A stretch of 32,000 bases of DNA from Candidatus Kuenenia stuttgartensis (GCF_900232105.1 NZ_LT934425.1:2880001-2912000); one strand, 5' to 3'; counted from the first letter of the stretch, positions 7,163 through 32,000 are shown. The notes: a model not told the origin generated them from the sequence alone. Made by a program: numbers and translations.

Positions 7163-7193
7163 TCTGAGAATTCCAGGTTCATTTATTGTGGGG

Positions 7194-7378: not shown

Positions 7379-7457
7379 CGAAATGGTGAATCTCCTTTCA
7401 GGTGTTTTTTGTTATCAATATACCGCCGAATACCTTGGAAATCCTACCATTTCAATC

Positions 7458-12324: not shown

Positions 12325-12328
12325 TCTA

Positions 12329-13117: not shown

Positions 13118-13213
13118 AATCGCCCCCTTCTATGGGTTAAGTTTGGAGGTAACGAGCTTATCTTGTTTATGCATCACGTTATCGTAAGGATATATGTGGC
13201 AGGAATATAAAAT

Positions 13214-13816: not shown

Positions 13817-13888
13817 ATGCCATCCTACTTACTTTTAAAACGTTATAAGCAACGTTAAATAAAAATGATACCGGTCATCTGCCGTGTC

Positions 13889-14200: not shown

Positions 14201-14271
14201 TTTTTTCTTCCTCCTTTGATTTTTACAGCGTTTACGTTATTGCCTGAAAACTAAAATAAGACTATGTTTTT

Positions 14272-15072: not shown

Positions 15073-15362
15073 AAGTTTATTTGGCTGGGATAAAACCAGA
15101 ATATTTTTTTGTTTTTATCGTCAATTTTTTTAACGATTTCATAAAACTCAGTTTTAGAAATGTCTTCTAATTTTTTGCCGTATGTTTTAACGGTTTTATT
15201 AAAAGCCATTACCTTTTCCGCAAGGTTGTCATGGGTTTTGGCAGATCCGCCAAGGATATAAAAATTTTCTCCCGTGGTAATCCTTTTATGATTATCTTCG
15301 TGGTCAAATGCAAGGCCAAGCAAGACGATATTTTCGTTTGAAGATTTGCGTTGATATGGCAA
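15069..15362 (-). CDS. Hypothetical protein (97 aa, TTG start)
   Basis: A GGAGG SD lies 5 nt upstream of the TTG. A 4-nt overlap with the TPR gene suggests translational coupling. I recognise no family. Confidence 0.55.
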   Translation of the reverse strand: MPYQRKSSNENIVLLGLAFDHEDNHKRITTGENFYILGGSAKTHDNLAEKVMAFNKTVKTYGKKLEDISKTEFYEIVKKIDDKNKKIFWFYPSQINL

Positions 15363-15586
15363 TCGCGCCTCCGTTCAAAGTTTGCTATAATTCACAATGA
15401 TAAAAGTATCAAAGGATACCATCGGTCAAAAAAAAAGTCAAGCTTCGTTTATACGGGTTCCTTGCGATTTTAGCGGTATTTTTTTAAGGGAAGCATGGGC
15501 GAAGCATTTGCTATAAATTGTCATAAATGCGTTCATACCCAAACTGGCAAATGCTTTGTCCATGCTGTTTGTTGGGGAAAAAAATG

Positions 15587-16981: not shown

Positions 16982-17101
16982 CGTTCTGCCTTATTGGTTC
17001 CAGTCTGATAAATCTATTGACCTGAAAAAATTTCACAGGGGTAAAACAATGCTATTTTCATTCAACGTACCATTATTTTTTCTTTTGCACAGTGGAGGAA
17101 T

Positions 17102-18292
17102 TTATTCTACCTTTTCTACTCCTAAAGCCTTCGCCATACCCAGCAACGCTCTGCCAACCAGAGAGCGTTTCATCTCTATTGCATGAAAATCGCATACCTC
17201 ATCACAGCAAAAACAACCAATACATTTCTTTTTGTCGACCTCTACTTTTCCCGTGTCTTTTGACATGGCGCCGGCAGGGCAATTTCTTACACACTCATAA
17301 CACCTTGTACAATTGGAATGGTTTACGGTGGAAAAAGTAGAACAGGTATTGTCAAACATCATCGCAAGAAGAAAATTGGGGAGATACTTTCCCGCAAAGT
17401 CCTGTGCACCGCTGGATGGTTTTTTAAAATCATGCACCGCTACATTTTGAATGGATTCTCCTGCTACAGTAATATTGCGCAATTCGCCAATGCCCAAACC
17501 GCGCTGATGTGCAAAACGGATAGTCGGTACGGCCATAGGTTCGAAACCAATGATGTTGCTGGCTACCGTATCCAGCGCGACGCTGTCCCTGCTGGAAATA
17601 ATTAAACCGACCTTTTTTGGGTTTCCCGCATTAGGGCCGTTTCCTTCCATGCCTACAATTGCATCCATTATGATGAGATGAGGCGGCGCCATTTGGTAAA
17701 TATCCACCAACGCCTTGGCAAAGACGGTTGGTTTCGGCGCTATTAAATGGACATTCTTTTTGCCATTGCCCGGTATCGAGCCGAGCATGTTTTTTATCGC
17801 TCCGGTATACTGCGTTAAACCGTGCGTTTTCAGTTTAGGAACGGAAACAATAAAATCTACCTCTCTCAACGTCCTGGCTATACGGAATTTGTCTAAGATT
17901 TCATAATCCTTGTTGTAAACATCGATGTATTTGTCTTTATCAAAATTTACAATCTTTGCGCCGGTATTTTCCGCAATTTCGTTGATACGGGTAACCCGGA
18001 AGGCGTTGAACGTGGAACTGTTTTTTACGCTTCCTGATGAATCCCCAATATATACCTCGCACCCAAAATCTTTCTGAAATATATCCACCAGCGCCCTGAC
18101 AACTGCAGGGTGGGTATTTACCGCTCTTTCCGGGGTTTGTGATGATGAAAGAAGGTTAAGTTTTAACAGTACCTTTTTTCCTGGTCGTACAAGCATTTCA
18201 GTGCCATTAAGCAAGCTTAGAGACCGATGTATCGCATGGTAAACCTTTTCCAGGGTATAATCGTCACATTTTGCAATTGATACTATAGACAT
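17102..18292 (-). CDS. DUF362-domain protein with a C-terminal 2x[4Fe-4S] ferredoxin module
   Basis: The N-terminus is DUF362-like (KVLLKLNLL...THPAVVRALV...IGDSSG). The C-terminus has CTRCYECVRNCP and CIGCFCCDEVC cluster motifs. Confidence 0.8.
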   Translation of the reverse strand: MSIVSIAKCDDYTLEKVYHAIHRSLSLLNGTEMLVRPGKKVLLKLNLLSSSQTPERAVNTHPAVVRALVDIFQKDFGCEVYIGDSSGSVKNSSTFNAFRVTRINEIAENTGAKIVNFDKDKYIDVYNKDYEILDKFRIARTLREVDFIVSVPKLKTHGLTQYTGAIKNMLGSIPGNGKKNVHLIAPKPTVFAKALVDIYQMAPPHLIIMDAIVGMEGNGPNAGNPKKVGLIISSRDSVALDTVASNIIGFEPMAVPTIRFAHQRGLGIGELRNITVAGESIQNVAVHDFKKPSSGAQDFAGKYLPNFLLAMMFDNTCSTFSTVNHSNCTRCYECVRNCPAGAMSKDTGKVEVDKKKCIGCFCCDEVCDFHAIEMKRSLVGRALLGMAKALGVEKVE

Positions 18293-18403
18293 GGGTAAAC
18301 CTCGTAAAATGTTTCTTGTATCTACGTTACAAAAGAAGTCTTTGCTGGGTAATACTATACCACAGCATATATCATGATAGTAGTAAAAATGAGCAGATGG
18401 GTA

Positions 18404-19219
18404 CTAAAATTTAAGAGGCACGGGGGTAAAAGACAGGAGAAAAATAATGAAAAGGGCAATGCCAAGCATCTTTCTCCTGGGATCGAGAGGCGTATATTCA
18501 TCTGCGGGCGAGGGATGTCGAAATCCAAAAATCAGAAGGAGTATGGCAAATAAAATCCAGCCCTTATAAAAAAAAACGGTGATTACGCAAAAAATAAATA
18601 TACCTATACGATAAACGATGTCACTCTTTTTCCCCAGCAGTGCGTACATAATATGTCCTCCGTCAAGCTGCCCGATTGGCAAAAGATTAAGCGCAGTGAC
18701 GAATAATCCGGCCCAGCCTGCAAATGCAAGAGGATGAAGATAAATATCCATTCCTTCCGGCAGCGTTCCAAATAGAAGCTTTGCGATAAATGAAAAGAGT
18801 ACCGGTTCCCCAAGTCCCAGGTAATTTGATGAATCGGCTGGCACAGGTCGTACGTCTGAAAGGATAAGGCCTACTACAATGGCGGGAATGGCAAATACCA
18901 GGCCCATAAGCGGACCTGCCGCGCCAATATCAAACAATGCCCGCTTGTGGGGGATGTGCCCTTTCATTTTTATGACTGCTCCAAATGTACCAAAAGGTGG
19001 CAGTGGGAGGGGTAGAAAATAGGGCAAGGTGGCGTCTACATGGTATTTTCTGCACATAAAAAAATGTCCTAATTCATGAGAAAGCAGGATTGACATAATA
19101 GCTAGTGAATACCATATTCCATTAACGTAATACGTTGTCAGAAAAGTGGCAATAAAAAGCAATACATGGATTCGCACCTTTTTGAAAAAAGGTGGAGATT
19201 TCTGGTCTTCTCTTGTCAT
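18404..19219 (-). CDS. Site-2 protease family (peptidase M50) membrane metalloprotease
   Basis: HELGHFF (HExxH) lies in a TM helix, NLLPIGQLDGGH is the second motif, and the protein is polytopic and hydrophobic. Confidence 0.85.
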   Translation of the reverse strand: MTREDQKSPPFFKKVRIHVLLFIATFLTTYYVNGIWYSLAIMSILLSHELGHFFMCRKYHVDATLPYFLPLPLPPFGTFGAVIKMKGHIPHKRALFDIGAAGPLMGLVFAIPAIVVGLILSDVRPVPADSSNYLGLGEPVLFSFIAKLLFGTLPEGMDIYLHPLAFAGWAGLFVTALNLLPIGQLDGGHIMYALLGKKSDIVYRIGIFIFCVITVFFYKGWILFAILLLIFGFRHPSPADEYTPLDPRRKMLGIALFIIFLLSFTPVPLKF

Positions 19220-19370
19220 TTACCTTTATTTTCCTCTTTCTCAATGTTTTTTTAAATTGTTGCCCGGTAAAAAACCCCTCTTTTTTGTAAGCAATTCTCT
19301 GTTTTCTTCATGTGTTCTTTTTTACATTAACATGTTAAATAAGTTTTGTAAATTATATTAAACGTTAATA

Positions 19371-19400
19371 TTGACATTGCCTCTGGAATCGTGATACTAT
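19371..19400 (+). promoter_or_regulatory. Candidate sigma70-type promoter for nikR
   Basis: TTGACA (19371-19376), then a 16-18-nt spacer, then gTGaTACTAT (an extended -10-like element, 19392-19400). Confidence 0.45.
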
Positions 19401-19468
19401 TTTCCGATTAGTAACATCGTTTAATGTCAAAAAACCAGAGCGTTACGCATAATTTTATATTGAGGCGC

Positions 19469-19888
19469 ATGATGTCTTTTTTGGTTAGATTCGGGGTTTC
19501 TCTGGAAAAGGAACTCCTTAAGAAATTTGATACCCACATAAAGAAGAAAAAATATACCAACCGTTCGGAGGCAATACGTGATCTGATACGCGGTAATTTG
19601 GTGATGGAAGAATGGCAGGAAGGCAAGGAGATTACCGGTTCTATCACACTTGTTTACGATCATCATAAAAGGGAACTGGTAAACATGCTCATTGATATCC
19701 AGCACGACTATCATGGTATTATCCTTTCTTCCCAGCATATCCATCTAGATCATGATAATTGTCTTGAAATCATTGTTATAAAAGGCAAGCCGCAAATGGT
19801 AGAGGAATTATACGGAAAACTGAAATCGGCAAAAGGTGTTAAACACGGGGGCATATCCATGGCAACTACGGGAAAGGGGATTTTGTAA
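19469..19888 (+). CDS. nikR: Nickel-responsive regulator NikR (ribbon-helix-helix + C-terminal metal-binding domain)
   Basis: RFGVSLEKELLKKFD...YTNRSEAIRDLIR is the RHH domain. HDYHGIILSSQHIHLDHDNCLEIIVIKG is the His/Cys nickel-site region. The ATG at 19469/19472 follows GAGG, whereas the ORF-track start at 19424 adds an atypical extension. Confidence 0.85.
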   Translation: MMSFLVRFGVSLEKELLKKFDTHIKKKKYTNRSEAIRDLIRGNLVMEEWQEGKEITGSITLVYDHHKRELVNMLIDIQHDYHGIILSSQHIHLDHDNCLEIIVIKGKPQMVEELYGKLKSAKGVKHGGISMATTGKGIL

Positions 19889-19921
19889 ATATGGCCTTTT
19901 CTAATCAAGCCCGGATTTCTG

Positions 19922-19939
19922 CACTATGCTTGCATAGCG
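19922..19939. promoter_or_regulatory. Imperfect palindrome cactatgc-tt-gcatagcg (possible distal operator)
   Basis: It shares the CTATGC/GCATAG half-site core with the palindrome at 20022-20038, about 90 bp away. It is duplicated at 27095-27112. Confidence 0.25.
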
Positions 19940-20019
19940 GCAAACATGGATACAATGAGAACGGGTTTCCTTCTGCCATTGCAAAAAAACATCCCGGAAT
20001 ATTCGTGATATTATTTTTT

Positions 20020-20047
20020 TTGTGCTATGCAATAGCACGAGTATATT
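20020..20047 (+). promoter_or_regulatory. Candidate cbiM promoter with an embedded perfect 7-3-7 palindrome (putative NikR operator)
   Basis: TTGTGC (20020-20025), 16 nt, then TATATT (20042-20047). The palindrome GTGCTAT-gca-ATAGCAC (20022-20038) fills the spacer. It lies 41 bp upstream of the cbiM start. Confidence 0.4.
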
Positions 20048-20079
20048 ATACGTACTACTGGTAACCGGAGGAGACATTT

Positions 20080-20685
20080 TTGCATATTAGCGACGGAGTA
20101 CTTTCTCCCTACATTGTCATTACCGGATGGGCTGTTGCAGCCCCTTCGTTAGCGATGTCGGTAAAAAGCCTGAAACCTGACAAAGTCGGTGCATACGGAG
20201 TAATTGCCGCTGTTTTTTTTGCAGGTTCGACAATCCACATACCCCTTGGACCTTTCAGCATGCATCTTGTCCTCAATGGTATTGCAGGACTTTTACTGGG
20301 ATGGAGCGCTGTAACCGTAATAACGGTAGGCCTTTTGCTGCAGGCTTTGTTCCTTGGTTTTGGAGGATTGACTGTGTTGGGGGTAAATATTGCTGTTATG
20401 GCGTTGCCTGGCGCGATTATCGGCATGCTTGGACGCCATTGGATGAAACAGTTTTCAGCGAAAAAACGGCCATGGATAGGATCGTTCGCGGGTGGCGGTG
20501 CTGTATGTATTTCGTCCGTTTTACTCTTTGTTGCGCTTTCTACAACCCATGCGGCGCTGGCGCCCCTTGCCAAACTGGTTTTTTGGGGACATGTTCCTGT
20601 CATACTTGTTGAAGGCGTTATCAGTTATTGGCTGGTACACTTTTTGCAAAAAGCAAAACCTTCGTTATTAGGAATTTTACATTGA
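20080..20685 (+). CDS. cbiM: ECF-type Ni/Co transporter substrate-capture component CbiM/NikM (copy 1)
   Basis: TTG start 7 nt after GGAGGA. The N-terminus is the hallmark MHISDGVL (MHIxDG). The protein has about 6 TM helices and is followed by cbiQ and cbiO. Confidence 0.9.
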   Translation: MHISDGVLSPYIVITGWAVAAPSLAMSVKSLKPDKVGAYGVIAAVFFAGSTIHIPLGPFSMHLVLNGIAGLLLGWSAVTVITVGLLLQALFLGFGGLTVLGVNIAVMALPGAIIGMLGRHWMKQFSAKKRPWIGSFAGGGAVCISSVLLFVALSTTHAALAPLAKLVFWGHVPVILVEGVISYWLVHFLQKAKPSLLGILH

Positions 20686-21099
20686 AAGCTTTCTTATTCG
20701 TTTTTTTTTGTATCTTTTTTTCGGTGCCTTTAGCGGTATATGCACACGGACTTTCTCTTTTTTCTAAGGAGAAAACATTGTATGCATCTTACAGCGATCA
20801 TACACCTGCCTCAGGAGCAAAGGTTGTTCTTGTGGATGCAAATGGCGTAATAATTCTTCAGGATAAAATGGATGAAAAGGGGATAGTGGAAGTTGCCGGA
20901 GAATTTGGAGACAATACCTCACTTAATCATTGTAGATGATTCCGGAGGTCATCGTGCAATGATAACATGGGAGGAATTTCTTAAAGAACGCCCAAAGGGG
21001 TTGTTAGACATTTTAAGTATCCGCGTGGTAATTGGAGTCATGTTCATTATCGGCGGCGGTTATGCCATACAACGGTTTTTATTAAAAAAAAAGACATAA
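20682..21099 (+). pseudogene. CbiN/NikL-type 2-TM auxiliary component, frameshifted in copy 1
   Basis: Relative to the intact copy (27855-28271) there is an extra G at 20886 (gatagtgg against gatatgg). This splits the gene into ORFs 20628-20939 and 20893-21099. Confidence 0.75.
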
Positions 21100-21818
21100 T
21101 GCCATTTTGCAAACTACAAAAATTGAAATTGCCGCCGGCTTCTACCCGCACAGGAACGATACTGGTTTTGCTTGTACTGGTGGGTATAGGTTTGCTGAAT
21201 AATTTTGGGCCTCTTGTTGTTTGCCTGTTTATGGTGTTATTGTTTGGTGTATTCACAGTTGGAAACATATTCATTGTTGTATGCCATGCAAAAGGAGTCT
21301 GGGTTTTTTCCCTTCTCACCGGTGTAAGCCTTTTGCTAACAAAAGAGGGCAGAGCGCTTGCCCCAATCCTCATGGTCAAAATGTTTTCAATGTGGTTGTG
21401 GAGTGTAATCTGGATTAAATGGGTGGGATTTGAACGTATTTTGTCAACCTTAGAGAAAATGGGAATACCGGCAATTTTGTTAAATGTCATTGCATTTACC
21501 ACGCGTTTTTTACCTATTATGGGGGAACGGATAAAAATGACGTTTGCCGCACAGTCTTCACGCGGTGCAAAAAAGGGGTTGCGTTCCCTGCAATTACGAA
21601 ACCTTGCCGGGGGGATTGGCAGTGTGCTTTTGTCTAGTTTTGAGCAATCTGAAAATGTTGAACGTGCAATGCAATCACGCGGATTTTGCGGAACATATAC
21701 TATCAGCACAGACAAAGACGAAGCGCCCTCGTATGTTGTTTTGTCTCTGATGTTTTTAATGGCTTTTTTAATTTGGACCGGAGTGATTTGCGATGTCCTG
21801 TGTGGTAAGTGTTTATAA
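21099..21818 (+). CDS. cbiQ: ECF transporter transmembrane (T) component CbiQ/NikQ (copy 1, intact)
   Basis: Polytopic protein with the two coupling-helix motifs AAQSSRGA and ERAMQSRGF. Start and stop overlap as TAATG. Confidence 0.85.
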   Translation: MPFCKLQKLKLPPASTRTGTILVLLVLVGIGLLNNFGPLVVCLFMVLLFGVFTVGNIFIVVCHAKGVWVFSLLTGVSLLLTKEGRALAPILMVKMFSMWLWSVIWIKWVGFERILSTLEKMGIPAILLNVIAFTTRFLPIMGERIKMTFAAQSSRGAKKGLRSLQLRNLAGGIGSVLLSSFEQSENVERAMQSRGFCGTYTISTDKDEAPSYVVLSLMFLMAFLIWTGVICDVLCGKCL

Positions 21819-22521
21819 CGTTACGTTTCTTTATCCGAATGGTGTGCAGGCGATATCAGGATTATCATTTTCCGTTCACCAACATGAAAAGGTGGGTCTG
21901 ATCGGGCCTAGTGGCGCTGGCAAAACAACCCTTTTTTGGCACTTAAACGGGCTTTTAAGACCACATTCGGGAGAAGTTCGTGTTTTGGACAAACCGCTTA
22001 CCGGACTCAAAAATATTAATGAAGTTCGGAAGCATGTCGCCCTTACTTTTCAGCAGGTAAACGATCAGCTTTTTTGTTCTTCCGTCTGGGAGGAAATTGC
22101 ATTTGGACCGAAAAATTTGTATTGGCCAAAGCAGCAGGTGGCAGACACGGTGGAAAAGTGGCTGGCGTATTTTGAATTAAATGATGTTCGGGAACGGCCG
22201 CCGCATCATTTATCGGGAGGGCAGAAGCGCAGGGTTGCACTGGCGGCAGCTATGGCGATGGAACCCGATTTGTTAATCCTCGATGAACCAGCAAACGACC
22301 TGGACCACCGTCATAGACGTAAATTAATAACCTATCTGAAAGGATTAAGAATTGCTCTTCTGGTGGCCTCACATGATTTACGCCTGATAGAGGAATTGAC
22401 CGAACGGTGCATTCTTATGGATAAAGGCAGGATTGTTGCAGACAAAACTACCGTTGAGTTGGTACATAATGAAGGTATTTTAAAAAAGTACGGGATGGAG
22501 GCAATACCGATAAAAGAATAA
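21793..22521 (+). CDS. cbiO: ECF/ABC transporter ATPase CbiO/NikO (copy 1)
   Basis: Walker A is GPSGAGKTT, the signature is LSGGQKRRV, Walker B is LLILDEP and the H-loop is ASHD. Confidence 0.92.
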   Translation: MSCVVSVYNVTFLYPNGVQAISGLSFSVHQHEKVGLIGPSGAGKTTLFWHLNGLLRPHSGEVRVLDKPLTGLKNINEVRKHVALTFQQVNDQLFCSSVWEEIAFGPKNLYWPKQQVADTVEKWLAYFELNDVRERPPHHLSGGQKRRVALAAAMAMEPDLLILDEPANDLDHRHRRKLITYLKGLRIALLVASHDLRLIEELTERCILMDKGRIVADKTTVELVHNEGILKKYGMEAIPIKE

Positions 22522-22601
22522 ATATTTTTTTAATTATGGTGGCACGATAGTAATAAGTGTGCTATTTAATTCCCTTTATTTTGTTAAAAGGAGTTCTTGT
22601 G

Positions 22602-23609
22602 ATGAACAATCGTTTTTTTTACAGTTTTATTCTTATACTTTTTTTCTGTTGCGCAAGTAACGCTGGAAAAGTGTATGCCCATCATGGAGGCGTTTCTACC
22701 GCCTTTGGCCCTGGCGCACCTGTTGAAACTGCATCGCCTATGACTCTCGGGAAAGGGAAATTTTTGCTTTACGAAAAAATAGAATTTGCGTCTTTTGAAC
22801 AAAAGAACCATGCTGACCCTGAAAACATTGAAAACTTTACCTTCTTTAACACATTAGCCGGCTATGGCATTACTGACTATTTATCCCTCTATCTTGTGAT
22901 GCCTTATGCTATTAAAGAACAAGACTCCTTAGGCACATCGAAGGGGTTTGGTGATGCTGGATTTTTAGTACAATACGGTTTTAAGTACGGCGAGAGAAAC
23001 GGGATTCGGGGTTTTTATAATAACGGCCCGGAAGATACTATTGGAGAAAGTTACACGACTAATGATCTGAAAATGTCGGTTTTAGGGGGTTTTACTGTTC
23101 AGACCGGTGATATTACAAACGAAGATAATAATGGCAACAGGTTTGACATGGGCATGCAGACAGGTTTTGCCGCGCCAACGTTTATGACAGGTTTCTCCGC
23201 ATCAAAAATGCTTTTTCAGCACTTTACTCTTACCGGGGAGACATCATTTACCACCTTTACCCGTCATGATGACGGTAAACCTGGAAATGAGATCCGTTTC
23301 AATCTGGCCGGAGGGTATGAAATATTTGAAAATCCTCAGGGATTTTTCCAAAGGGTAGATATTATTACTGAATCAAACTTCCTCCATCTGACAAAAGATG
23401 AAGACGAACACCATCACGATGAAGATGACAGCGGGGGAACGATTCTGTATCTTTCACCTGGCTTTCGCGTTTCTCTTAAGAAAAATATCAGTATCGGAGG
23501 GCTTCTGAAATTTCCCGTATGGAAGGATTTGAACAGGGAATCGGAGCAACAGGGCGCTGAAGGACTTGAACACTATAGGGCAATTCTCACCGTGACATAT
23601 TCTTTTTAA
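22602..23609 (+). CDS. Outer-membrane beta-barrel protein with a His/Asp-rich loop (putative metal channel), copy 1
   Basis: Signal peptide ...NAGKVYA|HHGG. The body shows an alternating beta-strand pattern. There is a DEDEHHHDEDDSGG loop and a C-terminal ...TVTYSF (terminal Phe). An SD (aaggag) lies before GTG/ATG at 22599/22602. Confidence 0.7.
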   Translation: MNNRFFYSFILILFFCCASNAGKVYAHHGGVSTAFGPGAPVETASPMTLGKGKFLLYEKIEFASFEQKNHADPENIENFTFFNTLAGYGITDYLSLYLVMPYAIKEQDSLGTSKGFGDAGFLVQYGFKYGERNGIRGFYNNGPEDTIGESYTTNDLKMSVLGGFTVQTGDITNEDNNGNRFDMGMQTGFAAPTFMTGFSASKMLFQHFTLTGETSFTTFTRHDDGKPGNEIRFNLAGGYEIFENPQGFFQRVDIITESNFLHLTKDEDEHHHDEDDSGGTILYLSPGFRVSLKKNISIGGLLKFPVWKDLNRESEQQGAEGLEHYRAILTVTYSF

Positions 23610-23679
23610 GGACGCCAACCCTGGCAGGGTTTTCTGGTCAATAATACCTTAAACCATTTATAGAGAAGGAGGAAAAATT

Positions 23680-24249
23680 ATGCTAAAAACACGAATATGG
23701 AAAAAGCAGATGATTGCAATACTTTTTTGGGCTTGTTGTACATTTCTGTCTCATCAAAAATGCATATTTGCACATGAAGGCCATGACCACTGGAGTAATA
23801 CCCCTATAACCATTAAAAGATCGACAGTAGTGCATTTGCAGTCGCTATTGGAATCATATGATCTTCTCTACAAAAAACTTATAGAGAAAGATATCCAAAA
23901 TATTCCTGTATTGGCGCAAAATATTATGGATGCTGCGCAACAGGGTGTTCAAACTGAAAATAAAGGTGAGGGGCGTTATATGATGGAACATATTTTTCAG
24001 CATGCGATATCTCTTAAAGAATGTGAAACCCTGGAAAATGCAAAAGAATCTTTAGGGTTAATAAGCCGTGAACTGTTTCCGTTCTTTATTGCATGGCCAA
24101 TGCAGCTTAAAGAAAACAAGTTAAGGCTTTATCATTGTAAAAATGATGAAAAATACTGGTTTCAGGCAGAAAATAGCGCTCCAAATTGCCCTTATGCTCA
24201 CGATGAATTATCAACATGCATTATTATTGAGGAAGTAGCGTATAAATGA
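23680..24249 (+). CDS. Exported helical protein with N-terminal HEGHDH and a C-terminal Cys/His motif (DUF3347-like by recollection), copy 1
   Basis: AAGGAGG SD is present. The signal peptide is ...HQKCIFA|HEGHDHW. The C-terminus is LYHCKNDEKYWFQAENSAPNCPYAHDELSTC. Confidence 0.65.
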   Translation: MLKTRIWKKQMIAILFWACCTFLSHQKCIFAHEGHDHWSNTPITIKRSTVVHLQSLLESYDLLYKKLIEKDIQNIPVLAQNIMDAAQQGVQTENKGEGRYMMEHIFQHAISLKECETLENAKESLGLISRELFPFFIAWPMQLKENKLRLYHCKNDEKYWFQAENSAPNCPYAHDELSTCIIIEEVAYK

Positions 24250-24656
24250 ATTGAACGACCATCTTTGCTTTAGAAAAACATGACAGTCTTATGACACCGT
24301 GTGCCCATAATTGGTCACTGTTTATATCAAGCCTTGCAGGATAGATGCGACTTTGTGTCTTAAGAAAAAAAACCGATGCGTGACCATTTATAGTCTTTCT
24401 GCGTTCTCATGTACTAATTGCATCTTTTTTGTGCTGTAATCGTAACATATTTAACAGTAGTAGCTTGTGCTTTCTTTGGTTGTGGTGGTCGTGTTGTTTT
24501 TTTCGAAATGGCGCACTTCTTGCTAAGTGTTGTTACATACAAAGTGTTTTGTTGTGTATTATTTTGCGCAGAATTTTTTACGGAAGGGGGGTGAATGTAC
24601 GGACGCATTTAAGTGTAAAAGCAGAAATTTTCGTGAGTTAGGATTGAGCAGATGTT

Positions 24657-25820
24657 ATGAATTTTGAAGGAGGTAAGCGAAGAATTATGATACGAAAGGG
24701 AATGATAGGAGCGGTGATGCTTGGAGCTGCGGTAGCGATAAGTGGCGGAGTAGCGACTGCGGGGTATATACAGGGTACGCATGTAAAGACGGATTTACCC
24801 GGGCCGTTTCACATAACGATGTCGCCGGATGGTAGTACGTTATTTATATCGAATCAATCTGGGCACAGTGTAACGTTTGTGGATGCAAGGACGCAGAAGG
24901 TAACGGGTGAGGTCGCTGTGAGGGTACAGCCTGAGGCTTCAGCGGTTACGCCTGACGGGGCATTTTTGTATGTATGTAATGCAGAGAGCGACAGTGTATC
25001 GGTAGTGGACATACAGAGGAAGCAGGAGATCAAGGAGATAAAGGTAGGTGACTGGCCGAGCGGGATCAAGATTTCGCCTGATGGCAAGACTGCCTATGTT
25101 GCATGTTCCGGTTGCATGTGGAACGCGATTGATGTAATTGATACGGGGAGGATGGAGAAGGTAAGGTCGATATATACTTCAGATTACGGTCCCAGGATGG
25201 TGGAGATATCTCCTGATGGGAAGACCCTTGTTGCGATACTTGACACGGTAGGATCGATCAACCGGAGCGTTGATTTTATTGACATTGCCAGTGGCAGGGT
25301 AGTAGAGAACAGGGTAATCCATGAGAGTTCCAACCTGAGGGATGTTGTATATACGCCGGATGGTAAATACATAGCTGTAACCCACCAGACGCCGAAGAAC
25401 TGGTTGCCGGTATGTGAAGCGGAGAATGGTCAGGTATTTACGAACAACGTAACAATCATAGAGACCAAGGCCGGTGGTAAGGTAGCGAGATTACCGTTGG
25501 ACGATCTCAACAATTACGATGGCAATCCGTATGGTATGGCGATGGACCCTAAGGGCAAGTATTTGTACATTGGGGTAAGAGGGATGCATCGTGTAACGAT
25601 ACTGGATATGGATAAGGTATTGGGTCTGGTGAGGAGCAGCACGCAGGAGGAGCTTGATTATCTGAGGGACGACCTTGGGTTGGTAAGAGATTATCTTGTT
25701 GCCAGGGTTCCTACGGGTCTGGGGCCAAGTTCGGTATGTTTATCACCTGACGGCAAATTTTGTTATGCGGCCAACTATTTTTCCAACAATGTAACCGTGA
25801 TAAGGACTGCGGTTGATTAA
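24657..25820 (+). CDS. Exported YVTN-type beta-propeller repeat protein (start may be the ATG at 24687), copy 1
   Basis: Reiterated (S/T)PDGKxxYV.N...V.V(I)D units, for example ISPDGKTAYVAC, ISPDGKTLVAI, YTPDGKYIAVT and LSPDGKFCYAAN. Signal peptide is MIGAVMLGAAVAISGGVATA. Confidence 0.85.
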   Translation: MNFEGGKRRIMIRKGMIGAVMLGAAVAISGGVATAGYIQGTHVKTDLPGPFHITMSPDGSTLFISNQSGHSVTFVDARTQKVTGEVAVRVQPEASAVTPDGAFLYVCNAESDSVSVVDIQRKQEIKEIKVGDWPSGIKISPDGKTAYVACSGCMWNAIDVIDTGRMEKVRSIYTSDYGPRMVEISPDGKTLVAILDTVGSINRSVDFIDIASGRVVENRVIHESSNLRDVVYTPDGKYIAVTHQTPKNWLPVCEAENGQVFTNNVTIIETKAGGKVARLPLDDLNNYDGNPYGMAMDPKGKYLYIGVRGMHRVTILDMDKVLGLVRSSTQEELDYLRDDLGLVRDYLVARVPTGLGPSSVCLSPDGKFCYAANYFSNNVTVIRTAVD

Positions 25821-25862
25821 GGATTGTATGGAGTGTGAGAGTTATTTATTTTTGGAAAACAA

Positions 25863-26924
25863 ATGGCAAGAGAAATGAGATTAGGAGGAAAAGAAAGAAT
25901 GAAGACAGGAGTAGTGAAAATAGGATTAGTTGCGGCCCTGGGGGTAGTGGGGCTGATATCGGCGGGCGGCGTATATGCCGGTCAGCCGCGGGTAATTTCC
26001 ACGATCCAGACGGGAGCTACGTGGGAACCGCTGGGAAGGGAAGAACCTTTGACGGTGCCGGAAGTGCATTTTCGTGTAAAGCATTCACCTTTTAAGAGTG
26101 AGCTGGTAAGATACGGGCAGTTCCAGTTTAACGATGCAGCGTGGAGTTTGCAGGGATCATACTCATGCGCCAGTTGTCATTATGAGAGAGGCCAGACAAC
26201 CGGTTTGATTTGGGATTTGGGAGATGAAGGATGGGGTAGCTGGAAGAACACGAAGTATATTCGTGGCGGCCGATATCTTCCTCCGTTCAGGCATGAGGGG
26301 TTCACTGGTCATCCTGATGAAATAGTAGGGGCAACCAGTTCACTTGACAGGGTATGTGGAAGGGATCCTGGATTTGTGTTCAGGAGTGAGAATTTTTCTC
26401 CGATGAGATTAGAGGCGCTCATTTGTTACATCAGGGCGTTGGAATTTACCGGGAGTCCATTCAGGAATGCGGATGGGAGTTTAACCGAAGCCCAGAAGAG
26501 GGGTCAGAAGATATTTGAGGATCCGAAGGTAGGATGTCTTGAGTGTCATCCTGGCGATCCGATGGATCCGAGGGCATTGTTCAGTGATGCACAGACGCAT
26601 GATGTAGGAACCGGCAGGGTAGGTGTAAATGGTTTCAGGTCAACACCTGGGAAGGTATTTAACATATCGGCGTTAGAGGCAGGTGAGGATCCATATGGTG
26701 TTGAGAGCAACACGCCGATCATTGGATTGGATCTTGTGAAGGAATTTGATACGCCGACATTGAGAGACATCTATGCATCAGGCACCTATTTCCATGATGG
26801 TGGTGCAAGGACATTGATGGACACCATAAACAACACGGTAAATGATAAGGACATGCATGGAAGGACGTCTCATTTAAAGCAGCAGGAGCTCCAGGATTTG
26901 GTGGAGTACCTGAAGGCGTTATAA
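25863..26924 (+). CDS. Di-haem cytochrome c peroxidase/MauG-family protein (start probably the ATG at 25899)
   Basis: Two CxxCH motifs (CASCH, CLECH) and the family block FDTPTLRDIYASGTYFHDGGARTL. A signal peptide follows the AGGAGG SD. Confidence 0.8.
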   Translation: MAREMRLGGKERMKTGVVKIGLVAALGVVGLISAGGVYAGQPRVISTIQTGATWEPLGREEPLTVPEVHFRVKHSPFKSELVRYGQFQFNDAAWSLQGSYSCASCHYERGQTTGLIWDLGDEGWGSWKNTKYIRGGRYLPPFRHEGFTGHPDEIVGATSSLDRVCGRDPGFVFRSENFSPMRLEALICYIRALEFTGSPFRNADGSLTEAQKRGQKIFEDPKVGCLECHPGDPMDPRALFSDAQTHDVGTGRVGVNGFRSTPGKVFNISALEAGEDPYGVESNTPIIGLDLVKEFDTPTLRDIYASGTYFHDGGARTLMDTINNTVNDKDMHGRTSHLKQQELQDLVEYLKAL

Positions 26925-27003
26925 GAGAGAAGTGTATGAATGTGTAGTATAAGCGATAAAAATTTAAGGACAATAAGTGAAAGGAGAAGGCCAATAGATG
27001 GGT

Positions 27004-27061
27004 AAAAGGTGTTAAACACGGGGGCATATCCATGGCAACTACGGGAAAGGGGATTTTGTAA
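27004..27061 (+). pseudogene. Orphan 3' remnant of nikR (last ~18 codons plus stop) at the duplication junction
   Basis: Identical to 19831-19888 (...KGVKHGGISMATTGKGIL*), but preceded by the sequence downstream of the cytochrome gene. Confidence 0.9.
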
Positions 27062-27192
27062 ATATGGCCTTTTCTAATCAAGCCCGGATTTCTGCACTAT
27101 GCTTGCATAGCGGCAAACATGGATACAATGAGAACGGGTTTCCTTCTGCCATTGCAAAAAAACATCCCGGAATATTCGTGATATTATTTTTT

Positions 27193-27220
27193 TTGTGCTA
27201 TGCAATAGCACGAGTATATT
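27193..27220 (+). promoter_or_regulatory. Second copy of the candidate cbiM promoter and 7-3-7 palindrome
   Basis: Identical to 20020-20047. The palindrome is at 27195-27211. Confidence 0.4.
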
Positions 27221-27252
27221 ATACGTACTACTGGTAACCGGAGGAGACATTT

Positions 27253-27858
27253 TTGCATATTAGCGACGGAGTACTTTCTCCCTACATTGTCATTACCGGA
27301 TGGGCTGTTGCAGCCCCTTCGTTAGCGATGTCGGTAAAAAGCCTGAAACCTGACAAAGTCGGTGCATACGGAGTAATTGCCGCTGTTTTTTTTGCAGGTT
27401 CGACAATCCACATACCCCTTGGACCTTTCAGCATGCATCTTGTCCTCAATGGTATTGCAGGACTTTTACTGGGATGGAGCGCTGTAACCGTAATAACGGT
27501 AGGCCTTTTGCTGCAGGCTTTGTTCCTTGGTTTTGGAGGATTGACTGTGTTGGGGGTAAATATTGCTGTTATGGCGTTGCCTGGCGCGATTATCGGCATG
27601 CTTGGACGCCATTGGATGAAACAGTTTTCAGCGAAAAAACGGCCATGGATAGGATCGTTCGCGGGTGGCGGTGCTGTATGTATTTCGTCCGTTTTACTCT
27701 TTGTTGCGCTTTCTACAACCCATGCGGCGCTGGCGCCCCTTGCCAAACTGGTTTTTTGGGGACATGTTCCTGTCATACTTGTTGAAGGCGTTATCAGTTA
27801 TTGGCTGGTACACTTTTTGCAAAAAGCAAAACCTTCGTTATTAGGAATTTTACATTGA
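27253..27858 (+). CDS. cbiM: CbiM/NikM (copy 2)
   Basis: Its protein is identical to that of 20080-20685. Confidence 0.9.
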   Translation: MHISDGVLSPYIVITGWAVAAPSLAMSVKSLKPDKVGAYGVIAAVFFAGSTIHIPLGPFSMHLVLNGIAGLLLGWSAVTVITVGLLLQALFLGFGGLTVLGVNIAVMALPGAIIGMLGRHWMKQFSAKKRPWIGSFAGGGAVCISSVLLFVALSTTHAALAPLAKLVFWGHVPVILVEGVISYWLVHFLQKAKPSLLGILH

Positions 27859-28271
27859 AAGCTTTCTTATTCGTTTTTTTTTGTATCTTTTTTTCGGTGC
27901 CTTTAGCGGTATATGCACACGGACTTTCTCTTTTTTCTAAGGAGAAAACATTGTATGCATCTTACAGCGATCATACACCTGCCTCAGGAGCAAAGGTTGT
28001 TCTTGTGGATGCAAATGGCGTAATAATTCTTCAGGATAAAATGGATGAAAAGGGGATATGGAAGTTGCCGGAGAATTTGGAAACAATACCTCACTTAATC
28101 ATTGTAGATGATTCCGGAGGTCATCGTGCAATGATAACATGGGAGGAATTTCTTAAAGAACGCCCAAAGGGGTTGTTAGACATTTTAAGTATCCGCGTGG
28201 TAATTGGAGTCATGTTCATTATCGGCGGCGGTTATGCCATACAACGGTTTTTATTAAAAAAAAAGACATAA
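27855..28271 (+). CDS. CbiN/NikL-type auxiliary component: N-terminal signal/TM, ~75-aa periplasmic beta-rich domain, C-terminal TM (intact copy)
   Basis: A TTG at 27855 overlaps the cbiM stop (TTGA). The sequence is MKAFLFVFFCIFFSVPLAVYA|HG..., then AKVVLVDANGVIILQDKMDEKGIW...DDSGGHRAM, then the C-terminal TM IRVVIGVMFIIGGGYAI. The position between M and Q matches CbiN/NikL, but it has no CbiN sequence motifs. Confidence 0.6.
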   Translation: MKAFLFVFFCIFFSVPLAVYAHGLSLFSKEKTLYASYSDHTPASGAKVVLVDANGVIILQDKMDEKGIWKLPENLETIPHLIIVDDSGGHRAMITWEEFLKERPKGLLDILSIRVVIGVMFIIGGGYAIQRFLLKKKT

Positions 28272-28991
28272 TGCCATTTTGCAAACTACAAAAATTGAAA
28301 TTGCCGCCGGCTTCTACCCGCACAGGAACGATACTGGTTTTGCTTGTACTGGTGGGTATAGGTTTGCTGAATAATTTTGGGCCTCTTGTTGTTTGCCTGT
28401 TTATGGTGTTATTGTTTGGTGTATTCACAGTTGGAAACATATTCATTGTTGTATGCCATGCAAAAGGAGTCTGGGTTTTTTTCCCTTCTCACCGGTGTAA
28501 GCCTTTTGCTAACAAAAGAGGGCAGAGCGCTTGCCCCAATCCTCATGGTCAAAATGTTTTCAATGTGGTTGTGGAGTGTAATCTGGATTAAATGGGTGGG
28601 ATTTGAACGTATTTTGTCAACCTTAGAGAAAATGGGAATACCGGCAATTTTGTTAAATGTCATTGCATTTACCACGCGTTTTTTACCTATTATGGGGGAA
28701 CGGATAAAAATGACGTTTGCCGCACAGTCTTCACGCGGTGCAAAAAAGGGGTTGCGTTCCCTGCAATTACGAAACCTTGCCGGGGGGATTGGCAGTGTGC
28801 TTTTGTCTAGTTTTGAGCAATCTGAAAATGTTGAACGTGCAATGCAATCACGCGGATTTTGCGGAACATATACTATCAGCACAGACAAAGACGAAGCGCC
28901 CTCGTATGTTGTTTTGTCTCTGATGTTTTTAATGGCTTTTTTAATTTGGACCGGAGTGATTTGCGATGTCCTGTGTGGTAAGTGTTTATAA
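28271..28991 (+). pseudogene. cbiQ: CbiQ/NikQ, frameshifted in copy 2
   Basis: A T7 run at 28486-28492 replaces the T6 run at 21304-21309. This splits the gene into ORFs 28271-28591 and 28377-28991. Confidence 0.8.
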
Positions 28992-29694
28992 CGTTACGTT
29001 TCTTTATCCGAATGGTGTGCAGGCGATATCAGGATTATCATTTTCCGTTCACCAACATGAAAAGGTGGGTCTGATCGGGCCTAGTGGCGCTGGCAAAACA
29101 ACCCTTTTTTGGCACTTAAACGGGCTTTTAAGACCACATTCGGGAGAAGTTCGTGTTTTGGACAAACCGCTTACCGGACTCAAAAATATTAATGAAGTTC
29201 GGAAGCATGTCGCCCTTACTTTTCAGCAGGTAAACGATCAGCTTTTTTGTTCTTCCGTCTGGGAGGAAATTGCATTTGGACCGAAAAATTTGTATTGGCC
29301 AAAGCAGCAGGTGGCAGACACGGTGGAAAAGTGGCTGGCGTATTTTGAATTAAATGATGTTCGGGAACGGCCGCCGCATCATTTATCGGGAGGGCAGAAG
29401 CGCAGGGTTGCACTGGCGGCAGCTATGGCGATGGAACCCGATTTGTTAATCCTCGATGAACCCGCAAACGACCTGGACCACCGTCATAGACGTAAATTAA
29501 TAACCTATCTGAAAGGATTAAGAATTGCTCTTCTGGTGGCCTCACATGATTTACGCCTGATAGAGGAATTGACCGAACGGTGCATTCTTATGGATAAAGG
29601 CAGGATTGTTGCAGACAAAACTACCGTTGAGTTGGTACATAATGAAGGTATTTTAAAAAAGTACGGGATGGAGGCAATACCGATAAAAGAATAA
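28966..29694 (+). CDS. cbiO: CbiO/NikO ATPase (copy 2)
   Basis: The protein is identical to copy 1, with one synonymous change (cca to ccc at 29463). Confidence 0.92.
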   Translation: MSCVVSVYNVTFLYPNGVQAISGLSFSVHQHEKVGLIGPSGAGKTTLFWHLNGLLRPHSGEVRVLDKPLTGLKNINEVRKHVALTFQQVNDQLFCSSVWEEIAFGPKNLYWPKQQVADTVEKWLAYFELNDVRERPPHHLSGGQKRRVALAAAMAMEPDLLILDEPANDLDHRHRRKLITYLKGLRIALLVASHDLRLIEELTERCILMDKGRIVADKTTVELVHNEGILKKYGMEAIPIKE

Positions 29695-29774
29695 ATATTT
29701 TTTTAATTATGGTGGCACGATAGTAATAAGTGTGCTATTTAATTCCCTTTATTTTGTTAAAAGGAGTTCTTGTG

Positions 29775-30782
29775 ATGAACAATCGTTTTTTTTACAGTTT
29801 TATTCTTATACTTTTTTTCTGTTGCGCAAGTAACGCTGGAAAAGTGTATGCCCATCATGGAGGCGTTTCTACCGCCTTTGGCCCTGGCGCACCTGTTGAA
29901 ACTGCATCGCCTATGACTCTCGGGAAAGGGAAATTTTTGCTTTACGAAAAAATAGAATTTGCGTCTTTTGAACAAAAGAACCATGCTGACCCTGAAAACA
30001 TTGAAAACTTTACCTTCTTTAACACATTAGCCGGCTATGGCATTACTGACTATTTATCCCTCTATCTTGTGATGCCTTATGCTATTAAAGAACAAGACTC
30101 CTTAGGCACATCGAAGGGGTTTGGTGATGCTGGATTTTTAGTACAATACGGTTTTAAGTACGGCGAGAGAAACGGGATTCGGGGTTTTTATAATAACGGC
30201 CCGGAAGATACTATTGGAGAAAGTTACACGACTAATGATCTGAAAATGTCGGTTTTAGGGGGTTTTACTGTTCAGACCGGTGATATTACAAACGAAGATA
30301 ATAATGGCAACAGGTTTGACATGGGCATGCAGACAGGTTTTGCCGCGCCAACGTTTATGACAGGTTTCTCCGCATCAAAAATGCTTTTTCAGCACTTTAC
30401 TCTTACCGGGGAGACATCATTTACCACCTTTACCCGTCATGATGACGGTAAACCTGGAAATGAGATCCGTTTCAATCTGGCCGGAGGGTATGAAATATTT
30501 GAAAATCCTCAGGGATTTTTCCAAAGGGTAGATATTATTACTGAATCAAACTTCCTCCATCTGACAAAAGATGAAGACGAACACCATCACGATGAAGATG
30601 ACAGCGGGGGAACGATTCTGTATCTTTCACCTGGCTTTCGCGTTTCTCTTAAGAAAAATATCAGTATCGGAGGGCTTCTGAAATTTCCCGTATGGAAGGA
30701 TTTGAACAGGGAATCGGAGCAACAGGGCGCTGAAGGACTTGAACACTATAGGGCAATTCTCACCGTGACATATTCTTTTTAA
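29775..30782 (+). CDS. Outer-membrane beta-barrel protein with His/Asp-rich loop (copy 2)
   Basis: Identical to 22602-23609. Confidence 0.7.
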   Translation: MNNRFFYSFILILFFCCASNAGKVYAHHGGVSTAFGPGAPVETASPMTLGKGKFLLYEKIEFASFEQKNHADPENIENFTFFNTLAGYGITDYLSLYLVMPYAIKEQDSLGTSKGFGDAGFLVQYGFKYGERNGIRGFYNNGPEDTIGESYTTNDLKMSVLGGFTVQTGDITNEDNNGNRFDMGMQTGFAAPTFMTGFSASKMLFQHFTLTGETSFTTFTRHDDGKPGNEIRFNLAGGYEIFENPQGFFQRVDIITESNFLHLTKDEDEHHHDEDDSGGTILYLSPGFRVSLKKNISIGGLLKFPVWKDLNRESEQQGAEGLEHYRAILTVTYSF

Positions 30783-30852
30783 GGACGCCAACCCTGGCAG
30801 GGTTTTCTGGTCAATAATACCTTAAACCATTTATAGAGAAGGAGGAAAAATT

Positions 30853-31422
30853 ATGCTAAAAACACGAATATGGAAAAAGCAGATGATTGCAATACTTTTT
30901 TGGGCTTGTTGTACATTTCTGTCTCATCAAAAATGCATATTTGCACATGAAGGCCATGACCACTGGAGTAATACCCCTATAACCATTAAAAGATCGACAG
31001 TAGTGCATTTGCAGTCGCTATTGGAATCATATGATCTTCTCTACAAAAAACTTATAGAGAAAGATATCCAAAATATTCCTGTATTGGCGCAAAATATTAT
31101 GGATGCTGCGCAACAGGGTGTTCAAACTGAAAATAAAGGTGAGGGGCGTTATATGATGGAACATATTTTTCAGCATGCGATATCTCTTAAAGAATGTGAA
31201 ACCCTGGAAAATGCAAAAGAATCTTTAGGGTTAATAAGCCGTGAACTGTTTCCGTTCTTTATTGCATGGCCAATGCAGCTTAAAGAAAACAAGTTAAGGC
31301 TTTATCATTGTAAAAATGATGAAAAATACTGGTTTCAGGCAGAAAATAGCGCTCCAAATTGCCCTTATGCTCACGATGAATTATCAACATGCATTATTAT
31401 TGAGGAAGTAGCGTATAAATGA
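30853..31422 (+). CDS. Exported HEGHDH helical protein (copy 2)
   Basis: Identical to 23680-24249. Confidence 0.65.
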   Translation: MLKTRIWKKQMIAILFWACCTFLSHQKCIFAHEGHDHWSNTPITIKRSTVVHLQSLLESYDLLYKKLIEKDIQNIPVLAQNIMDAAQQGVQTENKGEGRYMMEHIFQHAISLKECETLENAKESLGLISRELFPFFIAWPMQLKENKLRLYHCKNDEKYWFQAENSAPNCPYAHDELSTCIIIEEVAYK

Positions 31423-31829
31423 ATTGAACGACCATCTTTGCTTTAGAAAAACATGACAGTCTTATGACACCGTGTGCCCATAATTGGTCACTGTTTATAT
31501 CAAGCCTTGCAGGATAGATGCGACTTTGTGTCTTAAGAAAAAAAACCGATGCGTGACCATTTATAGTCTTTCTGCGTTCTCATGTACTAATTGCATCTTT
31601 TTTGTGCTGTAATCGTAACATATTTAACAGTAGTAGCTTGTGCTTTCTTTGGTTGTGGTGGTCGTGTTGTTTTTTTCGAAATGGCGCACTTCTTGCTAAG
31701 TGTTGTTACATACAAAGTGTTTTGTTGTGTATTATTTTGCGCAGAATTTTTTACGGAAGGGGGGTGAATGTACGGACGCATTTAAGTGTAAAAGCAGAAA
31801 TTTTCGTGAGTTAGGATTGAGCAGATGTT

Positions 31830-32000
31830 ATGAATTTTGAAGGAGGTAAGCGAAGAATTATGATACGAAAGGGAATGATAGGAGCGGTGATGCTTGGAGC
31901 TGCGGTAGCGATAAGTGGCGGAGTAGCGACTGCGGGGTATATACAGGGTACGCATGTAAAGACGGATTTACCCGGGCCGTTTCACATAACGATGTCGCCG
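31830..32000 (+). CDS. YVTN beta-propeller protein, copy 2, 5' part (runs off the window)
   Basis: Identical to 24657-24827. Confidence 0.8.
   Translation, partial: MNFEGGKRRIMIRKGMIGAVMLGAAVAISGGVATAGYIQGTHVKTDLPGPFHITMSP

Follow-up and report, generated by a model that had tools for sequence, protein, structure and literature searches.

Apparent reciprocal frameshifts in a tandemly duplicated nickel-uptake operon of Candidatus Kuenenia stuttgartensis are probably mixed-strain consensus errors

In the genome assembly GCF_900232105.1 of Candidatus Kuenenia stuttgartensis, a predicted nickel-uptake operon beside hydrazine synthase occurs twice, and each copy, as written, has a different gene broken by a frameshift. 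Does this pattern record the decay of two young duplicates, or does it stem from the assembly? The question was addressed in a stretch of 32,000 nucleotides (NZ_LT934425.1:2880001-2912000, one strand, hereafter the window), from whose first nucleotide all coordinates are counted.

According to self-BLAST and global alignment, 19825-24827 and 26998-32000 are direct head-to-tail copies with 99.88% identity and a start-to-start spacing of 7173/7172 bp. Self-BLAST finds no other repeat longer than 5 kb in the window; the layout of this one is as follows.

19825-26997, plus strand: tandem unit copy 1, 7173 bp (self-alignment and junction analysis), with the nikR 3' end, cbiM, the nikL-like gene, cbiQ, cbiO, X, Y, hzsB, hzsC and the first hzsA codons
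26998-32000, plus strand: tandem unit copy 2 (self-alignment), cut by the window end
26998-27009, plus strand: duplication junction, by comparison with the single-copy loci L001 and L015

The unit takes in the last ~58-64 bases of nikR on its left, the repeat beginning at 19825, while on its right copy 2 continues past the window end at 32000. At the junction the hzsA start, ATGGGTAA, is fused to the nikR 3' end, AAGGTGTTAA, with a microhomology of 2-6 bp. In the junction sequence, ATGGGTAA followed directly by AAGGTGTT, codon 3 of hzsA meets the 3' end of nikR, and reading across it encodes MGKRC and a stop. The mismatches at 19827 and 19830 are part of this junction and stand apart from the internal differences treated below. 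Tandem segmental duplication by illegitimate recombination is marked by copies in head-to-tail order and a new junction at short microhomology; both are seen here, where the 7173-bp segment stands twice in succession ahead of hzsA. Exact searches of JGI metagenome contigs for both duplication junctions gave 0 matches each, and upstream of CbiM nikR, not hzsC, was found in 10 of 10 places among the matches listed, so that no source independent of the one project confirms the duplication. As such it is probably genuine, and it has been published before.

The genes of the two copies and their neighbors were assigned by translation and profile searches.

19424-19888, plus strand: nikR, nickel-responsive repressor (Pfam NikR_C 1.5e-30, RHH_1)
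20080-20685, plus strand: cbiM/nikM copy 1, intact (Pfam CbiM 7.8e-47; NCBIfam NF004905, 187 bits, above cut-off)
20682-21099, plus strand: NikL-like auxiliary gene copy 1, frame broken by an extra G, translation stopping at 20939
21099-21818, plus strand: cbiQ/nikQ copy 1, intact, 239 aa (Pfam CbiQ 9.4e-17)
21793-22521, plus strand: cbiO/nikO ATPase copy 1 (Pfam ABC_tran 6e-33), containing the synonymous A at 22290
22557-23609, plus strand: gene X copy 1
23680-24249, plus strand: gene Y copy 1
24657-25820, plus strand: hzsB, hydrazine synthase beta (phmmer against PDB 5C2V chain B, 3e-240)
25863-26924, plus strand: hzsC, hydrazine synthase gamma (phmmer against PDB 5C2V chain C, 1e-223)
27253-27858, plus strand: cbiM/nikM copy 2, intact, same sequence as copy 1
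27855-28271, plus strand: NikL-like auxiliary gene copy 2, intact, 138 aa (likewise 138 aa in the CSTR1 annotation)
28271-28991, plus strand: cbiQ/nikQ copy 2, frame broken at a T run (ORFs 28271-28591 and 28377-28991)
28966-29694, 29730-30782 and 30853-31422, plus strand: copy 2 of cbiO, X and Y, respectively

The M, Q and O components share one operon, with CbiM, CbiQ and ABC_tran all above Pfam gathering scores. NikR is adjacent, and an Rfam scan of the window gave no family at gathering score, so no B12 or NiCo riboswitch was detected; the operon is a putative transporter of the NikR-regulated NikMLQO type. Rodionov and colleagues reportedly described NikMLQO and CbiMNQO in 2006 as group-I ECF-type nickel/cobalt importers under NikR control. 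The present operon resembles these in its M, Q and O components, in having between M and Q a small auxiliary protein of two helices, and in the nikR directly upstream. It differs from them in the additional genes X and Y after nikO, both for secreted His-rich proteins, and in the auxiliary protein, which reaches only 41 bits (E 1.8e-10) against the cut-off of 100 of the NikL family model NCBIfam NF058648; its metal specificity is a prediction. While the first-pass labels CbiM, CbiQ, CbiO and upstream NikR hold, the auxiliary protein, which had been called CbiN/NikL-type, is a distant NikL-like protein and had no match to CbiN (PF02553) in a Pfam search. In copy 2 its gene has a TTG start overlapping the cbiM stop, and its product combines a signal peptide with a membrane helix at the C terminus, residues 66-80 including EKGIWKLPENLE. 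X and Y had no match in Pfam, NCBIfam or PDB, nor did a PDB sequence search with X, Y and NikL give one. GTDB species genomes scanned with protein Y gave matches only in other Kuenenia-like species (L011-L013), where the NikL-like gene is kept at full length and X and Y are kept after cbiO. Intact CbiQ occurs in 23 blocks of the public collection. A literature search on Kuenenia, nickel and NikR gave no paper.

Global alignment of copy 1 with copy 2 gives exactly four internal differences, i.e. two indels and two synonymous substitutions. At site 1, an extra G at 20886 (GGGGATAGTGG in copy 1, GGGGATATGG in copy 2) ends the 138-aa NikL-like ORF of copy 1 after codon 68, with a stop at 20937-20939, whereas the ORF at 27855-28271 is unbroken in copy 2; alignment and translation thereby confirm the first-pass claim that the auxiliary gene is broken in the one copy and intact in the other. 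At site 2, the T6 run of copy 1 (21304-21309) is a T7 run in copy 2, by which cbiQ is shortened to 106 aa (stop at 28589-28591), compared with 239 aa at 21099-21818 in copy 1. This frameshift too had been described correctly, but its place had been given as 28486-28492, which reads TTCTCAC; the run lies 10 bases lower, at 28476-28482. The substitutions, GAG/GAA for Glu (G at 20910, A at 28082; a known inter-strain SNP) and CCA/CCC for Pro in cbiO (A at 22290, C at 29463), leave the encoded residue unchanged when read in the intact frames, as had been stated.

20886, plus strand: extra G, adjoining 20885 (alignment of 12 copies)
21304-21309, plus strand: T6 run followed by CCC, the type-B allele; 21310 is a C/T SNP between haplotypes
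28476-28482, plus strand: T7 run followed by CCC, i.e. the T6C3 allele with the extra T of T7C2

The k-mers diagnostic of the two insertions are GGGGATAGTGGAAG and GGGTTTTTTTCCCTTC.

Comparison with other assemblies places these differences among known strain polymorphisms. Two haplotypes were distinguished, type-B (the window, L004, L007, L010 and CSTR1) and the L002-type. All four inter-copy differences fall at sites that separate the two, and each carries the L002 allele. Both indels sit at SNPs dividing the window haplotype from L002/L003 (GCA_900232175.1), namely A/G at 20885 and C/T at 21310. Site 1 reads GATA or GATG followed by TGG in the other assemblies and GATAGTGG in copy 1, i.e. 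GATA+G+TGG; site 2 reads T6C3 or T7C2 elsewhere and T7C3 in copy 2, i.e. T6+T+C3. The inserted base is thus the alternative haplotype allele at both indels. The chance that two random 1-bp insertions would do so is 4e-6 when the 14 L002-type SNPs, which lie between 20229 and 22290, are counted, 3e-5 with all 40 SNP sites, and ~1e-4 if the T-run event may fall on any of 28 homopolymers of >=6 bases. Neither insertion occurs in the ~25 other copies of independent assemblies, among them contigs built from Illumina data and the complete genome of CSTR1. The truncated products (CbiQ of 106 aa; NikL of 53 aa with L or M as first residue) had no exact match on record, which is weak evidence since the window's own source is apparently not in the collection.

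These observations bear directly on the complementary degeneration proposed in the first-pass annotation, by which independent frameshifts after duplication would have removed nikL from copy 1 and nikQ from copy 2, locking in the duplication since only the pair would yield a full transporter. The sequence as written shows precisely this reciprocal pattern, and to that extent the earlier reading stands; as reciprocal gene loss it is not supported. With the site at 20886 in copy 1 lying to the left of that at 28476 in copy 2, any single-copy recombinant would be without at least one gene. Nor is the assembly noisy in general, as judged by the lack of other indels against near-identical references in window 1-10476, in 11729-19824 (L017/L018 cover 11729-24813 and L007/L010 cover 13679-24813) and, against L001 and L003, in 24828-26997. 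Against degeneration, the two insertions are not independent: both lie on inter-strain SNPs and place the other strain's allele in series with the resident one (p ~1e-5), and neither recurs in the other copies. We know of no mutational process that places both alleles in tandem. Moreover, with the copies in agreement elsewhere over 5 kb, the duplication must be very young, and two inactivating events with no other new mutation would be unusual at that age. Duplication-degeneration-complementation, which Force and colleagues are said to have described in 1999, denotes the reciprocal pseudogenization of duplicates. The present case is like it in that, on paper, each duplicate is without a different essential part, and unlike it in that the changes match pre-existing inter-strain SNPs instead of being independent inactivating mutations after duplication, and are most likely not real. 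We give genuine complementary degeneration only a small chance of being correct.

The T run invites a second reading, also raised in the first-pass annotation, in which slipped-strand switching would turn copy 2 cbiQ on and off. A coding homopolymer of unequal length in the two copies would suit such a switch. Out-of-frame variation in tract length, the sign of a phase-variable locus, was not seen, however: throughout the ~25 other copies the tract is in frame as T6C3 or T7C2, and in 30 of 30 instances (19 T6C3, 11 T7C2; independent assemblies, some contigs counted more than once) T and C together make up 9 bases, with no T7C3, T5 or T8 among them. The adjoining C/T SNP accounts for the apparent change in length, T6/T7 is short for a contingency tract, and the extra G is left unaddressed, all of which makes phase variation extremely improbable.

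The first-pass annotation had further named homopolymer or consensus errors. Random residual long-read errors, i.e. a miscounted homopolymer and a stray extra base where polishing of the repeat was not possible, would be in keeping with a T6/T7 difference, a classic homopolymer error, with a PacBio-only assembly, and with the position of both indels in the sole >5 kb repeat of the window. They give no account of why two indels and two substitutions all lie at known SNP sites with the alternative allele. The extra G is outside any homopolymer, and the T run at site 2 is not among the longest in the unit, where runs of T8, T9 and A9 are unaffected. Random error unrelated to strain mixing is therefore very unlikely, and of the earlier suggestion the consensus error is retained, with merged mixed-strain reads as its favored cause.

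We consider it likely, from the sequence comparisons, that both frameshifts are assembly artefacts of a mixed-strain long-read consensus and not gene losses. Reads of a second, co-cultured strain would have been merged with the long reads of the main strain, and at two single-base differences between the strains both alleles would have been kept side by side in the consensus: A and G would have become AG at 20885-20886, and T6C3 and T7C2 would have become T7C3 at 28476-28485. The two synonymous differences may be the same intrusion, the other strain's allele displacing the resident one, or alternatively real recombinant alleles. Over 35 bp of copy 1 (A+G, A, G and C at 20885, 20891, 20910 and 20920) the sequence changes between haplotypes, as is typical of a consensus mosaic and unlike a conversion tract. 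Had the other haplotype donated sequence by gene conversion, the two substitutions would be explained, but neither the alleles in series nor these close switches. The lack of other indels against near-identical references, given above, is likewise in keeping with the mixed-strain reading.

Such artefacts have a precedent in Korlach et al. 2017 (PMC5632298), where merged-haplotype PacBio consensus inserts indels at nucleotides that differ between haplotypes. The present case shares with it the 1-bp indels exactly at haplotype-differing nucleotides (20885 and 21310), with the alternative allele inserted and both in series at the two sites, and, if the window is from MBR1, the long-read-only hierarchical (HGAP/FALCON-type) assembly of a sample with two very similar haplotypes. 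It differs in that the haplotypes are those of two co-cultured bacterial strains, that the region is also tandemly duplicated, and that site 1 was not reproduced by our likelihood model. In this simple pair-HMM of a Quiver-like polisher on mixed reads, the T7C3 template was preferred only near a 50:50 mix and GATAGTGG never, so the error must have arisen at a less refined stage (correction of seed reads, graph consensus or gap filling). The final polishing step, for which the model fails at site 1, is not claimed as the source; HGAP pre-assembly seed-read correction or Celera consensus is probably the step responsible. Counting against an artefact are the indels at only 2 of ~28 SNP positions (14 sites in two copies) and the ~20 SNP sites of unique flank without indel, the latter leaving a link of the artefact to the repeat undemonstrated.

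The related assemblies are of mixed-strain origin, and the window itself is almost certainly, as we infer, from the PacBio-only genome of strain MBR1. In the sections of Frank et al. 2018 (PMC5854607) drawn on here, MBR1 carries hzsBC as a partial copy, followed by six locus tags (KSMBR1_2705-2710) and a full hzs cluster (KSMBR1_2711-2713). The gene order around hzsB/hzsC and the full hzs cluster is the same in the window, where hzsB and hzsC at 24657-26924 are the partial hzs copy and HzsB and HzsC are near-identical to PDB 5C2V. The same sections report PacBio RSII data only, a culture with at least two highly similar strains, and very deeply covered regions that led to reads being assigned to both strain bins. 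They also give >99.99% concordance with an extra PacBio run, which counts against an artefact, although the reads of that run came from the same mixed culture. L002/L003, the donor haplotype, belongs to the low-abundance sister assembly GCA_900232175.1, in which a further contig is 100% identical to window 1-10476. The duplicated transporter operon, its junction and the frameshifts are not described in those sections, and the supplementary files hold nothing on the locus tags, cobalt or cbiQ. CSTR1 has two full hzs sets and is without the partial copy according to Ding & Adrian 2020 (PMC7709395), who do not mention frameshifts, nickel or cobalt.

A pattern of complementary degeneration should accordingly not be read off one unphased assembly, and for long-read assemblies of mixed cultures a cheap diagnostic is at hand, in that an indel consisting of two known alleles in series points to a consensus error and not to a mutation. 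Should the frameshifts be real, which we hold to be improbable, a very young nickel-uptake operon duplication would already show reciprocal loss, copy 1 being without nikL and copy 2 without nikQ; each collapse to one copy would leave a defective transporter, the duplication would be retained, and extra hzsB and hzsC would be carried along with it. If they are consensus errors, both operon copies are expected to be intact in the living cell. In MBR1, a reference genome in anammox research, two pseudogene calls in the nickel-uptake operon beside hydrazine synthase would then be wrong, and both copies should be treated as functional.

Self-alignment of the window revealed a direct repeat (19825-24827 and 26998-32000; 99.88% identity, spacing 7173/7172), the second copy of which extends past the window end. 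Base-by-base alignment found four internal differences between the copies:

20886, copy 1 only: extra G
20910 (copy 1) and 28082 (copy 2): G/A substitution
21304-21309 (copy 1) and 28476-28482 (copy 2): run of T6 in the former, T7 in the latter
22290 (copy 1) and 29463 (copy 2): A/C substitution

Translation showed that the extra G truncates the copy 1 auxiliary gene after codon 68, that T7 shortens the cbiQ product in copy 2 to 106 aa, and that both substitutions are synonymous, which confirms the frameshifts of the first-pass annotation as an observation, apart from its T-run coordinates in copy 2, which were 10 bases too high.

The repeated unit consists of the nikR 3' end, cbiM/nikM, a 138-aa auxiliary gene, cbiQ/nikQ, cbiO/nikO, two genes here called X and Y, and two hydrazine synthase genes, whose products match the beta and gamma subunits of Kuenenia stuttgartiensis (PDB 5C2V; 3e-240 and 1e-223). 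The auxiliary protein, with a signal peptide and a C-terminal helix, had no Pfam match, and reached E 1.8e-10 and 41 bits, under the cut-off of 100, against the NCBIfam "NikL family nickel/cobalt ECF transporter subunit". Its full-length model is shared, at 70-88% identity, by three further Kuenenia-like genomes, which also keep the entire order nikR-M-L-Q-O-X-Y. No riboswitch was found in the window with Rfam families at gathering score. The two genes conserved 3' of nikO are located as follows:

X: 22557-23609 (copy 1), 29730-30782 (copy 2)
Y: 23680-24249 (copy 1), 30853-31422 (copy 2)

Both encode secreted, His-rich proteins, neither of which matched anything in Pfam, NCBIfam or PDB. X, with ~90% identity among Kuenenia-like species, has a signal peptide, with HH past its predicted cleavage site, and further contains DEDEHHHDEDD and ends in ...TVTYSF; by its sequence it looks like an outer-membrane beta-barrel. 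In Y, a signal peptide is followed by HEGHDHWS. Together, X and Y may complete a nickel route through the outer membrane and periplasm. The nik operon is not always linked to hydrazine synthase: hzsB is present downstream of Y in Kuenenia sp. (L011), but in Ca. Kuenenia hertensis (L012) and a lake Planctomycetota MAG (L013) neither hzsB nor hzsC was found in the 10 kb that follow Y.

When the two window copies were aligned with the locus in ten further assemblies, two main population haplotypes emerged, differing at 14 sites within the repeat: type B (the window, L004, L007, L010 and, from later look-ups, CSTR1 and several Illumina contigs) and the L002 type. All four copy differences sit on sites separating these haplotypes, the L002 allele being introduced each time, and both indels are the two haplotype alleles written in series.

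Alleles at the two frameshift sites
Site 1 (NikL-like gene): type B GATA-TGG; L002 type GATG-TGG; window copy 1 GATAGTGG
Site 2 (T-run in cbiQ): type B GGG-T6-CCC; L002 type GGG-T7-CC; window copy 2 GGG-T7-CCC

The chance of two random 1-bp insertions both giving alleles in series is 4e-6, or 3e-5 with all 40 polymorphic sites allowed; with the T-run hit granted free among the 28 homopolymers of at least 6 bases in the unit, several of which are longer than T6, it is still ~1e-4. These comparisons make a mixed-strain consensus artefact in a published long-read genome the most likely explanation of the frameshifts. In copy 1, the haplotype changes several times in 35 bp (A+G, A, G and C at 20885, 20891, 20910 and 20920), and such repeated switches do not resemble a conversion tract.

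The survey was extended to ~25 distinct copies, found in MAGs at NCBI, the complete genome of CSTR1, JGI contigs and Logan contigs based on Illumina reads. In these, site 1 invariably read GATATGG or GATGTGG (GGTGTGG in L011) and site 2 T6C3 or T7C2, with no out-of-frame tract. Real complementary degeneration, i.e. the reciprocal gene loss first read into the two copies, is unlikely, as the indels carry the other haplotype's alleles and neither insertion occurs in the ~25 other copies. Exact protein look-ups in the public collection gave no record of the truncated NikL-like and CbiQ products, and found intact CbiQ in 23 blocks. Together with the consistently in-frame tract, this leaves phase variation at the T-run, proposed earlier as slipped-strand switching, highly improbable.

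Fine-scale mosaic haplotypes were seen in L009, L021 and L024, the latter two having L002-type alleles at site 1, yet T6C3 at site 2; window position 19595 (nikR) carries A, the L002-type allele. Such mosaicism means either that Kuenenia strains recombine often or that chimeric consensus is widespread in MAGs, and in view of it the two synonymous copy differences could be real recombinant alleles.

Against near-identical references, no indels were found in 1-10476, in 11729-19824 (L017/L018, covering 11729-24813, and L007/L010, covering 13679-24813) or in 24828-26997 (L001 and L003). With the remainder of the window this clean, random long-read error is a rather improbable cause. The affected SNP positions number 2 out of ~28 (14 sites in two copies). 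In a pair-HMM model of a maximum-likelihood polisher, T7C3 was favoured only where the two read types were close to 50:50, and GATAGTGG in no case. The artefact would more likely have arisen when minor-strain seed reads were "corrected" by major-strain reads, graph consensus or gap filling being other putative origins. In their account of the sequencing, Frank et al. 2018 (PMC5854607) describe a culture with at least two highly similar strains, PacBio RSII reads only, with HGAP correction, Celera Assembler and PBJelly gap filling, and the assignment of reads from very deeply covered regions to both strain bins. The signature is the same as that of Korlach et al. (PMC5632298), i.e. indels at haplotype-differing nucleotides in a merged-haplotype PacBio consensus. 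L002/L003 are part of the sister assembly GCA_900232175.1, in which the end of another contig (OCTL01000044.1) is 100% identical to window 1-10476; a 610-aa transposase in this stretch is recorded in that single contig only in the whole collection. Window 1-13000 is transposase-rich, with DDE_Tnp_1 genes at 7458-9290 and 2253-3383.

The tandem duplication itself is probably real. In the single-copy relatives L001 and CSTR1 (L015), hzsC runs directly into hzsA; at the window junction (26998-27009), hzsA contributes its first eight bases (ATGGGTAA), which are fused to the nikR 3'-end AAGGTGTTAA, with 2-6 bp of microhomology. The window has the same structure as the hzs region that Frank et al. 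outline for strain MBR1 (a partial hzsBC copy, KSMBR1_2703-2704; six locus tags, KSMBR1_2705-2710; the full hzs cluster, 2711-2713), and the duplication is thus already published. No independent second instance of the junction was found by exact search of JGI metagenome contigs or at the places given by CbiM look-up. Just 5' of the second operon copy, a 5-codon ORF (26998-27015; MGKRC, then stop) is now driven by the ribosome-binding site and start codon of hzsA. This operon copy retains the complete intergenic region between nikR and cbiM (27062-27252), and thereby a promoter and operator of its own.

The operon is also tandemly duplicated, but in a different way, in OCTL01000095.1 (L002/L003) of the sister assembly, where neither operon copy is disrupted. 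The repeated unit there measures 5643 bp, with hzsB joined to nikR (L002 11680-11740; matching window breakpoints 19741 and 25388) as an in-frame 281-aa HzsB-NikR_C fusion. The differing unit and junction point to two independent nickel-transporter duplications in strains from seemingly one reactor, for which dosage selection or a fragile site could be responsible. A third locus version in this assembly (L004/L016/L027; OCTL01000042.1) belongs to the type-B haplotype; nikR and cbiM are separated there by an inserted IS (DDE_3 transposase, 345 aa; L004 1976-3013), and a full hzsBCA cluster follows.

Read as a consensus artefact, the frameshifts are of low biological interest; their practical value would lie in correction of a reference genome and in a simple diagnostic for similar cases.
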